DNA from: Gammaproteobacteria bacterium
Lineage (GTDB): Bacteria; Pseudomonadota; Gammaproteobacteria; JAABTG01
NCBI GenBank assembly: GCA_017999615.1
Contig: JAGNLM010000001.1
Span: 264,549 to 328,548, forward strand
Length of the DNA stretch: 64,000 nucleotides
Reading direction: 5' to 3'
The position numbers and the translations under genes were made by a program. Of the stretch, positions 40,369-46,260 are shown piece after piece; within the stretch, counting starts at the first letter, position 1, and each line of letters starts with the position of its first letter. The notes beneath the pieces were generated by a model. The model did not search any database and was not told the origin of the DNA. It saw nothing but the letters and a program-made list of their open reading frames with translations.

Positions 40369-43300
40369 ATGAGCGACGACTGCATCCGGATCCGGGGCGC
40401 CCGCCAGAACAACCTGAAAGGTCTCGACCTGGACCTGCCCCTCGGGGAGCTCCTGGTGGTCACCGGCGTGAGTGGCGCGGGCAAGTCCTCGCTCGCCTTC
40501 GACACCCTCTACGCCGAGGGCCAGCGGCGCTACGTCGAGACCTTCTCGCCCTACGCCCGCCAGTTCCTCGACCGCATGGACCGCCCGCGGGTGGACCGCA
40601 TCGAGGGGATACCGCCGGCCATCGCCATCGACCAGACGAACCCGGTGCGGACCTCGCGCTCGACGGTCGGCACCATGACCGAGCTGTCCGACCACCTGAA
40701 GCTGCTCTACGCCCGGGCGGCCCAGCTCTACTGCGGGGGCTGCGGGCGCCCCGTGCGCCGGGACACGCCGGAGAGCATCGCCGACGCGCTCCTCGGCGAC
40801 GGGCTGCCGGTGCTCGTCACGTTCCCGGTCCAGGTTCCCGCCTCCTTCTCCGAGGAGGAGGTGCGGGGCTTCCTCGCCGCCCAGGGTTACACCCGCGTCC
40901 ACCGGCGCGACGGCGACACGCTGGAGGTGGTGCAGGACCGCCTGCGGCCCGCCGCCGAGCGGCGCGCGCGGCTCGTCGAGGCCCTGGAGGCGGCGCTCGA
41001 GCGCGGGCGCGGGCGGGTCAGCGTGTATCGGGCCGACGCACAGGAGCCGCCCCGGCGCTTCTCCCGCGATCTGCACTGCCCGGACTGTGACCTGCGCTAC
41101 CGTGACCCGGTCCCCAGCCTGTTCTCCTTCAACTCGCCCCTGGGGGCCTGCGAGACCTGCCGGGGCTTCGGGCGCACCCTCGGCATCCATCCGGACCTGG
41201 TCGTCCCCGATCCGGCCAGGACGCTCGCGGGTGGGGCGGTGCGCCCCTGGCAGACCGAGAGCTACGGTGAGTGCCAGGACGACCTGTTGCGCTTCGCCCG
41301 CCGGCGGGGGGTGCGCACCGACGTGCCCTGGCGGGACCTCTCCCCCGAGGAGCGCCGCTGGGTGCTGGAAGGCGAAGGGGAGTGGGAAGACCGGGTCTGG
41401 TACGGCGTCGGGCGCTTCTTCTCCTGGCTCGAGAGCAAGGCCTACAAGATGCACGTGCGCGTGCTGCTCTCGAAGTACCGCAGCTACGCGGTTTGCCCGG
41501 CCTGCGGCGGGGCGCGCCTGAAACCGGAGGCGCTGCTCTGGCGGCTCGGTACGAGGGAGGACGCCGACGCGGCGCTCGGGGGCACCGCCCGTTTCCGCCC
41601 GGCCGGGGTGGCTTTCCCGGACGCCGTGCTGAGCGCCCTGCCGGGCCTCACCCTGCACGACCTCGCGGGCCTCCCCCTCGGGACGGCCCGCGCCTTTTTC
41701 GACGGCCTGCACCTGCCGGCCCCACTCGACCAGGCGACCGACCTGCTGCTGCGGGAGATCCGCACCCGGCTCGCCTACCTGGTGGAGATCGGGGTCGGTT
41801 ACCTCACGCTCGACCGCCAATCGCGCACGCTCTCGGGTGGCGAGGTGCAGCGGATCAACCTGACGACCGCCCTCGGCACCTCCCTCGTCAACACGCTCTT
41901 CGTCCTGGACGAGCCCAGCATCGGGCTGCACCCGCGGGACGTGGGGCGGATCATCGGGGTCCTGCAGCGCCTGCGTGACGCCGGCAACACGCTGGTCGTG
42001 GTCGAGCACGACCCCCAGGTCATGCTGGCCGCGGACCGGATCCTCCATCTGGGGCCGGGGCCGGGGGAGAACGGCGGCGAGGTGGTGTTCTTCGGTCCGC
42101 CGGGCGAGCGGGTGAAACAGGGTTTGGAGTCATCGGCAGGCATTGCCAGGGTGGCTGACTCCGACGCCCTCGTCTTCCCGGGGGCTGGCGCTGGCGCAGG
42201 CGGCGGGGTCGGCCCCCCCGACGGGGCGACCCGCTGGCTCGAGGTCCTGGGCGCCGCGGAGCACAACCTGAAGGGGATCGACGTCCGCATCCCGCTCGGG
42301 CGGCTGGTCTGCCTCACGGGTGTCAGCGGCTCGGGCAAGTCGACCCTGGTGGAGGAGGTCCTCTACCGGGGGCTGCTGAAGCGGCTCGGGCGCGCGACCG
42401 AGGCGCCCGGCGCCCACCGGGACCTGCGGGGCCACGAGTCCCTCGGGGACGTGGTCCTGGTGGACCAGTCACCCATCGGGAAGACCACCCGCTCCAACCC
42501 TGCCAGCTACGTCGGCGCCTTCGACGCCATCCGCAAGCGCTTCGCCGCCCAGCCGCTCGCCCGGGAGCGGGGCTACACCGCCGGCACCTTCAGCTTCAAC
42601 GCGGGTGACGGGCGCTGCCCGACCTGCGGCGGGAACGGCTTCGAGCACGTGGAGATGCAGTTCCTGTCCGACGTCTACCTGCGCTGCCCCGACTGCGACG
42701 GGCGGCGCTACCGTCCCGAGGTGCTCGAGGTCCGGCTGGAAGGACCGGGTGGTCCCGCGGGTGCGGATGGGGCTCCCCGGCCCGGCCTGTCCATCGCAGA
42801 CGTGCTCGACCTGACCGTCTCCGAGGCCCTCGCGTTCTTCGCCGGCGACGCCGAGATCGCCCGCGCCCTCGAGCCCCTGGTCGCCGTCGGCCTCGACTAC
42901 CTGCGCCTGGGCCAGCCCGTCCCCACCCTCTCCGGCGGCGAGGCCCAGCGCCTGAAGCTCGCAAAAATGGGGACATTCTGGTTTTCCGGAGAACCAGGCG
43001 GGGCGCGGGTTTCCGAGGGGGGGGTAAGGGCAGTCGGGGACGTCGCGGAGAGCAAGCGCCTACGCGGCTCGCGGGAAAAGCAGAATGTCCCCATTTCTGT
43101 TCTGTTCCTCTTCGACGAGCCGACGACGGGGCTGCACTCCGAGGACGTCGCGACGCTCCTGGGGGCGTTGCAGGCGCTGGTGAAGGCCGGCCACTCGGTG
43201 GTGGTGATCGAGCACAACCTGCAGGTGATGGGCGCCGCCGACTGGATCATCGACCTCGGACCCGAGGGCGGGGACGGTGGCGGCGAGTTGGTCTGCGCGG

Positions 43301-46260: not shown

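Follow-up and report, generated by a model that had tools for sequence, protein, structure and literature searches.

A tandem-fused UvrA paralogue whose two units carry complementary losses, encoded in a gammaproteobacterial genome

Introduction

What would a bacterium do with a UvrA protein of twice the usual length? The question is raised by a gene in a stretch of 64,000 nucleotides from a Gammaproteobacteria bacterium (GenBank assembly GCA_017999615.1, contig JAGNLM010000001.1, positions 264,549 to 328,548 of the forward strand), which we refer to as the window and from whose first letter all positions are counted. A complete coding sequence at 40369..46260 of the forward strand, with an ATG start and matches to UvrA models, encodes a tandem-fused UvrA of 1963 aa followed by a stop codon. 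The original prediction, made from the DNA letters alone, had described it as a head-to-tail fusion of two complete UvrA-like units lying outside the usual uvrA context. Our analysis makes it clear that the gene belongs to a large, conserved and already annotated family of tandem-fused UvrA paralogues, in which each of the two units has lost a different part of the equipment of a canonical UvrA. We propose, with a probability of about one half, that the product is a single-chain asymmetric UvrA pseudo-dimer with one docking site for UvrB or Mfd, acting as an accessory sensor in excision repair.

Results

The fusion is encoded in one uninterrupted frame

The reading frame runs from the ATG at 40369 to the stop at 46258-46260 without an internal stop, and its G+C content at third codon positions (GC3) of 0.92 is like that of the neighbouring genes. 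An in-frame TTG lies upstream at 40324, which is unlikely to serve as the start since the ATG-initiated product opens with the canonical UvrA N-terminus, MSDDCIRIRGARQNNLK. A separate ENA metagenome contig (L085), from an independent assembly, codes for an identical 1963-aa protein, and the fused state was found in 120/120 of the best database homologues and in 80/80 of the genome loci described below. The single-frame fusion of 1963 aa that the original prediction had put forward is thus borne out, and a hidden frameshift, stop or misassembly, which would have turned it into two genes, is excluded by the identical protein in the independent assembly together with the 120 fused homologues.

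Each unit follows the fold order of a canonical UvrA

With NCBIfam and Pfam models, UvrA was matched twice along the protein, and both units matched it end to end. Their identity to one another is 40% by BLASTP and 44.6% over 827 trimmed alignment columns. Unit 1 (aa 1-1000; 40369..43368, on the forward strand like every feature of the gene given here) carries three of four DNA-binding arginines and an insertion domain, and its UvrB-binding-like domain is truncated but retains an Arg/Glu pair. Unit 2 (aa 1033-1963; 43465..46257) is without the insertion domain and combines a full UvrB-binding scaffold, minus the equivalents of R216 and E222 of Escherichia coli UvrA, with all four DNA-binding arginines. 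The two are joined by a linker of 32 aa rich in Gly, Pro and Ser (aa 1001-1032; 43369..43464; GQPPSVPAGSSPPGESAPAGRADLPGRGRPGA); such a linker had been predicted, although at about aa 1020-1050. Across the family the linkers measure 19-79 aa (median 28), are rich in Ala, Pro, Gly, Arg and Ser, and are unconserved in sequence, and because they are short, variable and of low complexity we regard the linker as a tether.

A motif scan placed Walker A motifs at aa 33, 651, 1060 and 1572, LSGGE signatures at aa 488, 854, 1414 and 1801, and Walker B motifs at about aa 510, 912, 1436 and 1861, and four H-loops are present. The N- and C-terminal sets of ATPase motifs claimed for each of the two UvrA-like units are therefore confirmed as four nucleotide-binding domains (NBDs), two per unit, all with intact motifs, the ATPase lysines being K39, K657, K1066 and K1578. 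The count of zinc modules has to be revised from four to six, as there are 12 CxxC motifs making three modules per unit, two in NBD-I and one C-terminal finger. In unit 1, the first zinc module (CxxC at aa 122 and 237; 40732..41088) surrounds the shortened and diverged UvrB-binding-like domain, the second (aa 261 and 376; 41149..41505) surrounds the insertion (DNA-binding) domain, and the C-terminal finger, Zn3, has its CxxC pairs at aa 750 and 773 (42616..42696). In unit 2, the first module (aa 1149 and 1274; 43813..44199) surrounds a UvrB-binding domain on the canonical scaffold, the second is a remnant whose CxxC pairs at aa 1298 and 1333 stand 35 aa apart with the insertion domain excised (44260..44376), and Zn3 lies at aa 1711 and 1734 (45499..45579). 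Each unit thus has NBD-I broken by the Zn1/UvrB-binding domain and by the Zn2/insertion-domain site, followed by NBD-II with its Zn3 hairpin, and this order is common to canonical class I UvrA (E. coli b4058; the Bst, Tma, Mtb and Ct structures 2R6F, 3PIH, 3ZQJ and 9GXK). Three surface-loop inserts of low complexity were also seen, one in NBD-II of unit 1 between the signature motif and Walker B (aa 867-910, about 44 aa; 42967..43098; an alignment gap from query residue 866 to 911) and two in unit 2 (about aa 1604-1636 and 1823-1853).

The two units have lost different parts of the UvrA machinery

The original prediction had proposed annotating the insertion and UvrB-binding domains in each unit, and doing so located the insertion domain in unit 1 only and a UvrB-binding scaffold that is partial in unit 1 and full in unit 2. 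The insertion domain of unit 1 scores 45.7 bits with Pfam UvrA_DNA-bind and aligns with that of Bst UvrA. In unit 2 only about 24 residues stand where 9gxk_A has the stretch between residues 306 and 427, so that the insertion domain is gone and the cysteine pairs of its zinc base remain. The spacing of the Zn2 CxxC pairs is exactly 35 aa for unit 2 in all 120 homologues and 115-121 aa for unit 1, and the Zn1 cysteine pairs enclose 115-125 aa in each unit. The UvrB-binding domain model, Pfam UvrA_inter, matches unit 2 as a full domain (82.1 bits, profile positions 2-105; 82-97 bits in five diverse members) and unit 1 over profile positions 62-108 only (26.7 bits; family range 22-35 bits), where some 15 aa of the hairpin are missing and the canonical RKGEY is replaced by P-x-N-F-S.

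In E. coli UvrA, R216 and E222 lie on the surface that interacts with UvrB/Mfd (Manelyte et al. 2010, PMC3025350), R712, R722, R724 and R730 serve DNA binding, K37 and K646 are the ATPase lysines, and G502 is involved in damage recognition (PMC3025350). Residues at these positions were tallied in an alignment of 119 family members. The equivalent of R216 in unit 1 is Arg in 119/119 (R201 in the window protein) and that of E222 is Glu in 119/119 (E207), whereas in unit 2 the former is Glu in 69 members, Ala in 20, Asp in 12 and Gly in 9 (Asp in the window protein) and the latter is variable (Gly in the window protein). The DNA-binding arginines are all retained by unit 2 in at least 117/119 members; in unit 1 the equivalent of R730 is Thr in 115/119 and that of R722 varies. 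The equivalents of K37, K646 and G502 are invariant in both units (119/119), and more distant clusters at 50% identity follow the same trend of residue loss.

Taken at face value, the Pfam scores would make unit 2 the UvrB binder and unit 1 a degenerate copy; this assignment was rejected, as the contact residues are retained in unit 1 and lost from unit 2. What the alignments show is a complementary pattern of loss, in which unit 1 has kept the UvrB/Mfd contact pair along with the insertion domain and unit 2 the full DNA-binding patch. Neither unit is decaying, since the window protein and a Geobacter homologue are equally similar in unit 1 (73.7% identity) and in unit 2 (72.8%). In heterodimeric and single-chain ATP-binding cassette (ABC) proteins with one degenerate half, features that are needed once per dimer decay in that half after duplication or fusion. 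Unlike these, however, the present protein has consensus ATP sites throughout, and its asymmetry resides in accessory domains and contact residues.

Interface residues are conserved in both units

The dimer interface of UvrA has been defined by cryo-EM of Ct-UvrA in 2025, where Y55-Y55 and F66-F66 make symmetric contacts, Y62, Q65 and F66 insert into the DNA, and S58 contacts I85 (PMC12796330). In Ct-UvrA numbering, both units conserve the interface and DNA-wedge residues R54, Y55, Y62, Q65, F66, G80, P83 and L507 throughout the family. Other positions are fixed in a unit-specific manner, with unit 1 and unit 2 having, respectively, Thr and Ser at position 58, Leu and Val at 67, Ala and Thr at 84, Ile and Val at 85, Val and Arg at 508, and Thr and Val at 510. 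The S58-I85 contact would turn into T58 (unit 1)-V85 (unit 2) and S58 (unit 2)-I85 (unit 1), and side-chain volume would be compensated in this way only in a pairing of unit 1 with unit 2; the candidate pair in the window protein is T58 of unit 1 and V1112 of unit 2. Such compensating substitutions would fit a hetero-interface between the units, and we regard them as suggestive but not conclusive.

SOS boxes and coexistence with canonical uvrA

Relatives were collected in a scan of one genome per species, and the best 80 were studied as loci. At 8/74 loci, the 300 nt upstream of the double uvrA contain a LexA box that matches CTGT-N8-ACAG perfectly and has an AT-rich spacer, compared with 6/1700 control windows (Fisher p = 1.5e-8). 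The eight loci, which are all from Burkholderiaceae or Alcaligenaceae, have the box 51-165 nt upstream of the start (L080, L019, L020, L071, L021, L064, L057 and L052, covering Caballeronia, Bordetella, Mycetohabitans, Achromobacter, chromosome 2 of B. multivorans and Cupriavidus). The box upstream of a Cupriavidus gene, CTGTATGGATGTACAG, is an example, and two further loci (L024 and L026) have boxes with one mismatch. Judged by these promoter motifs, the double uvrA looks SOS-induced in the two families. The core SOS regulon of multi-chromosome betaproteobacteria includes a 'uvrA' (PMC3323433), the text being silent on which uvrA is meant.

Cupriavidus metallidurans CH34 has a canonical set of uvrA/B/C/D and mfd, and in addition a 'second excinuclease gene uvrA2' on chromosome 2 (PMC2864759), while a gene of R. 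solanacearum is named uvrA1 (PMC9325324). We infer that the CH34 uvrA2, Rmet_4549, is the double-length gene, judging by the replicon that carries it and by loci L052 and L057 of Cupriavidus. This literature evidence indicates that a canonical uvrA coexists with the double gene in Cupriavidus and Ralstonia, and in these relatives it fits the presumption of the original prediction that the gene is a paralogue additional to the housekeeping uvrA. The Cupriavidus gene taken to be uvrA2, the Burkholderia chromosome 2 gene and the gene on the R. solanacearum megaplasmid (about 2 Mb), which is labelled 'uvrA', are of the same family and architecture as the window protein, with 57-58% identity over the full length. 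They differ from it in setting, as the genes of Cupriavidus, Burkholderia and Ralstonia are located on secondary replicons and the window gene sits in a core chromosomal block. In Cupriavidus and Burkholderia they are also preceded by a perfect LexA box, which the window gene does not have.

A widespread family with several tandem architectures

The scan found a relative in at least 597 species genomes, and the best 80 of these are all full length with 55-72% identity. Two metagenome proteins are closer still, at 98% and 89% identity, and the window protein was aligned over 99-100% of its length. Related metagenome sequence includes ENA ERZ22666005 k127_15290649. The set of features diagnostic of the Geobacter/Cupriavidus/Ralstonia type is present in full, namely four Walker A motifs, 12 CxxC motifs, the 35-aa spacing of Zn2 in unit 2 and the Arg/Glu pair in unit 1. 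The closest relative among the matches listed belongs to an Ectothiorhodospiraceae metagenome-assembled genome (CAYTPQ01, L001; 72% identity). The product of its gene (L001:4338-11000, protein P0003) has 2202 aa, exceeding the window protein by about 240 aa.

Within the Burkholderiales, a double UvrA was found in Bordetella, Achromobacter, Cupriavidus, Burkholderia, Rubrivivax, Variovorax and Thiomonas; the genome scan also returned Steroidobacteraceae, Verrucomicrobiia, Spirochaetales and Nitrospinota, and protein matches added Geobacter, Ca. Manganitrophus, Ca. Methylomirabilis and Nitrospirota. The phyla include Desulfobacterota, Methylomirabilota, Verrucomicrobiota and Spirochaetota as well. 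The original prediction was right that double-length UvrAs are annotated and functionally uncharacterised, but its range of 'some Proteobacteria and Actinobacteria' was too narrow. Family members are annotated merely as "UvrA". No published work on UvrAs described as 'class III', duplicated, tandem or double was found in the searchable literature, and 'uvrA2' in the literature nearly always refers to the UvrA2 dimer or to the Deinococcus class II protein. Goosen and Moolenaar are said to have named duplicated UvrAs 'class III' in 2008.

The top 150 matches of an exhaustive search of 1.84 billion cluster representatives were almost only double-length proteins, which dominate such a search because two matching units double the score; this made the search unsuitable for finding the nearest canonical UvrAs, and we rejected it for that purpose. 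The tandem proteins it returned (P0121-P0270) fall into many clusters at 50% identity and into several distinct architectures. Some have the insertion domain in both units (e.g. P0122 and P0127), others have the reverse of the present arrangement, with the domain missing from unit 1 and present in unit 2 (P0150 and P0175), others again consist of two class-II-like units in about 1600 aa (P0208 and P0255), and a further group (P0124 and P0140), at about 2340 aa, is longer by roughly 450 residues.

In a neighbour-joining tree, the unit 1s of the window type and of the type with two insertion domains formed one clade and their unit 2s another, although the pattern of domain loss differs between the two types. 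The separate clades point to a single ancient fusion, after which the units would have kept stable identities. The two units of P0150, on the other hand, grouped together, and this suggests that the protein arose by an independent duplication. E. coli UvrA was nearer to unit 2 (49.5% identity) than to unit 1 (44.9%) over the 827 trimmed columns.

Matches to UvrA-like proteins on plasmids were also noted. There are 921 plasmid records with such a match, and the double-length gene occurs in only 245 of them. The others are single-length UvrA-like genes in Enterobacter, Klebsiella, Acinetobacter, Pantoea, Streptomyces and Staphylococcus, many on conjugative or mobilizable plasmids, and are possibly of the class II type.

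Discussion

A single-chain pseudo-dimer as the preferred reading

Our preferred reading, to which we give roughly even odds, is that the chain folds back to let units 1 and 2 meet through their ATP-binding-I domains, so that one polypeptide would reproduce the head-to-head dimer which canonical UvrA builds from two chains. As in the UvrA2 dimer, the pseudo-dimer would scan and bend DNA. It would dock only one UvrB (or Mfd), since docking site and insertion domain would both lie on unit 1, and would serve as an accessory damage sensor that feeds UvrB/UvrC excision alongside a canonical UvrA, as the relatives lead us to expect. Its asymmetry can be read from the sequence itself, with the sole insertion domain and the sole intact R201/E207 pair on unit 1 and the complete signature-II arginine patch on unit 2, while each of the four ATPase sites and six zinc modules is intact. 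The protein keeps what is common to canonical UvrA in its ATPase motifs, the equivalent of G502 and the dimer-interface and DNA-wedge residues. It differs in having two units per chain (1963 aa as against about 940 aa), in a unit 2 without insertion domain and R216/E222, in a unit 1 with a truncated scaffold and Thr in place of R730, and in a gene that is not linked to ssb and has no SOS box. As a class I protein each unit would fall short, because neither seems to combine a full UvrB-binding scaffold with the contact residues and unit 2 is missing the insertion domain.

Several observations weigh against this proposal. The UvrB-binding-like domain of unit 1 is short by about 15 aa and its N-terminal half is unmatched by Pfam, so that UvrB binding by unit 1 may be altered or lost despite R201/E207. 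The conservation of interface residues is just as compatible with a pairing of two chains as unit 1:unit 1' and unit 2:unit 2'. At the window locus, no credible SOS box was found at 40069-40388, which takes in the whole divergent intergenic region (40111..40368), the only matches being GC-rich versions of CTGT-N8-ACAG with two mismatches; a box is absent from the Ralstonia locus (L081) as well. Neither uvrB, uvrC, mfd nor any other conserved neighbour was found beside the double uvrA in the 80 loci. The neighbour-joining tree behind the single fusion carries no support values, and a functional or experimental study of any family member was not found in the searchable literature.

As an individual gene the window uvrA is ordinary, being one of the hundreds of species' members labelled "UvrA". 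The value lies in the family, which would provide a second UvrA-type sensor, SOS-linked in Burkholderiales, whose halves divide the labour of a UvrA dimer. A naturally asymmetric UvrA could inform how many UvrB molecules the damage sensor needs and how the strand is chosen, and the features most worth following are the SOS boxes and the way in which the two halves have degenerated in a complementary manner.

Alternative readings

The strongest competitor, which we nevertheless consider unlikely, is that the protein works without UvrB as a DNA 'cleaner' in the manner of DrrC, Ecm16 and D. radiodurans UvrA2, binding DNA that is distorted by intercalators or other non-covalent ligands, using ATP to dislodge them and so providing tolerance to drugs or toxins without excision. 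Like these class II proteins, the double UvrAs are UvrA-derived ATPases that coexist with a housekeeping UvrA, being probably additional to it in the relatives, and have lost part of the apparatus for coupling to UvrB, as the contact residues are gone from unit 2 and the scaffold is truncated in unit 1. Excision-repair genes were not found nearby, and Ecm16 itself functions without UvrB, UvrC and UvrD (PMC9328131). However, class II proteins are single units that are without zinc module 1 and the UvrB-binding domain altogether (PMC9328131, PMC9241694), whereas the window protein is fused, keeps Zn1 and a UvrB-binding-like domain in both units and retains the Arg/Glu pair in unit 1, so that the analogy to DrrC drawn by the original prediction is weak. 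The invariance of the R216 and E222 equivalents of unit 1 (119/119) argues for selection on a contact of the UvrB/Mfd type, and the SOS boxes of Burkholderiales point to the repair of DNA damage. Several class II genes also sit in antibiotic gene clusters; here the neighbours are purA, a gene for an unknown membrane protein and cysAWT-sbp, and no biosynthetic gene cluster surrounds the gene in the window or in the 80 loci.

A bolder version of the single-chain pseudo-dimer, which we consider less likely still, would make it a dedicated one-sided UvrB loader. As an obligate single-chain pseudo-dimer it would load one UvrB in a fixed orientation, which would suit strand-directed repair, for example Mfd-coupled repair of the transcribed strand, more than a two-sided scan of the genome. 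A role that is strand-directed or linked to Mfd is conceivable because UvrA without its insertion domain stays proficient in Mfd-dependent repair, with poor global repair (PMC3025350). If true, this would be a natural 'UvrA2-UvrB1' machine, bearing on A2B2 versus A2B1 stoichiometry and on the choice of the damaged strand.

About as doubtful is a dimer of doubles, in which like units pair across two chains. The resulting four-unit complex would have two insertion domains and as many UvrB sites, and the fusion would merely co-localise two specialised paralogues. Both units conserve Y55 and F66, each of which contacts its own counterpart symmetrically in canonical UvrA, and the shortest linkers (19 aa) might not reach across a head-to-head dimer. 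Such an assembly makes the complementary degeneration hard to explain, however, as the unit 2:unit 2' dimer would have neither insertion domains nor UvrB contacts, and the unit-specific interface substitutions would be volume-compensating only in the hetero-pairing.

Somewhat less probable again is that the gene is the sole uvrA of its organism, an unusual housekeeping version such as the UvrA of about 1800 aa in Chlamydia (NF001885). No other uvrA was found within the 64 kb, the setting is core chromosomal (mutL, hflXKC, hisZ, purA), and the whole protein passes the thresholds of UvrA equivalog models, scoring 1897.7 with NF001503 (cut-off 1147; E. coli UvrA, 1628.6). Yet 64 kb is a small fraction of a genome, a canonical uvrA coexists in Cupriavidus and Ralstonia, and the locus has neither the link to ssb nor the SOS box that are typical of uvrA in Gammaproteobacteria. 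Moreover, the single units fail NF001503 at 897.2 (unit 1) and 1010.2 (unit 2), so that with the loss of the insertion domain from unit 2 the original description of two complete UvrA units cannot stand; on TIGR00630 (cut-off 729.8) both pass, at 881 and 969. The whole protein exceeds the NF001503 cut-off because two sub-threshold units add up, and on the strength of this summed score pipelines name the fused protein plain 'UvrA'. This is an annotation trap, in that genomes may be scored "uvrA"-positive by virtue of this paralogue. The Chlamydia-type model (1809 positions) likewise describes a tandem fusion of similar length, but the window protein scores only 997.3 bits on it against a cut-off of 3054, so that the Chlamydia type is a different and probably independent lineage of fusion.

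Finally, the merging of two adjacent uvrA-like genes by sequencing or assembly error is already refuted by the continuous frame with uniform GC3, the identical protein in an independent assembly and the fusion in all 120 top homologues and 80 genome loci, even though one short metagenome contig (L083) shows a split version with a stop and a change of frame before the unit-2-like gene.

Genomic context and minor observations

On L083, the end of a UvrA C-terminus (L083:2-154; ...ERSHTGHFLRELV...) is followed by a stop, 2 nt and the ATG of a 944-aa unit-2-like gene (157-2991) that is in another frame and has no insertion domain. A second contig, L084, carries a standalone 914-aa unit-2-like gene (L084:281-3025; 62% identical to unit 2) with an unrelated ORF upstream. 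Both are lone contigs of about 3 kb, and we rejected them as split-gene ('Rosetta-stone') evidence as too weak.

The window is a core chromosomal stretch. Its gene order starts with pta-ackA, tricarboxylic acid cycle genes, a tripartite ATP-independent periplasmic (TRAP) transporter, malic enzyme, resistance-nodulation-division (RND) efflux genes and ptsP, and continues with mutL, hflX-hflK-hflC, hisZ, purA, an 801-aa gene (reverse strand), the double uvrA, cysA-cysW-cysT-sbp (reverse strand) and cysC. The sulfate ABC transporter genes downstream score above the NCBIfam cut-offs, as expected from the sulfate-transport neighbours described by the original prediction, and its statement that the gene lies away from ssb and outside a uvrA-ssb context also holds, as no ssb, uvrB or second uvrA occurs within the 64 kb.

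The divergent 801-aa gene (37705-40110, reverse strand) had been described as encoding an EF-hand membrane protein. Its product has two or three transmembrane-like segments (about aa 575-640 and 697-715), in keeping with the second half of that description, and an Ala/Pro/Lys-rich (EKPAA-like) C-terminal tail; the EF-hand is not borne out, as there is no PS00018 loop and no Pfam or NCBIfam match. Elsewhere this gene adjoins the double uvrA only in L001, where its product is 85% identical, above the 72% of UvrA itself. Apart from that case, no window neighbour recurs beside the double uvrA, and an operon partner among them was rejected. De novo clustering of neighbours over the 80 loci gave at best a major facilitator superfamily (MFS)-type transporter in 14/80, reflecting local synteny, and as no gene family is recurrently adjacent we regard the double uvrA as a stand-alone gene.

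Three further ORFs in the window, at 52100-52573 (forward strand, 157 aa), 52935-53786 (reverse strand, 283 aa) and 54645-56465 (forward strand, 606 aa), had no Pfam match at E <= 1e-6. The sulfate-binding-protein ORF at 49086-50522 (reverse strand) is listed as 478 aa from a GTG, and its sulfate-binding-protein domain begins only at about aa 165. The actual start probably lies downstream of this GTG, or else the protein has a long N-terminal extension.

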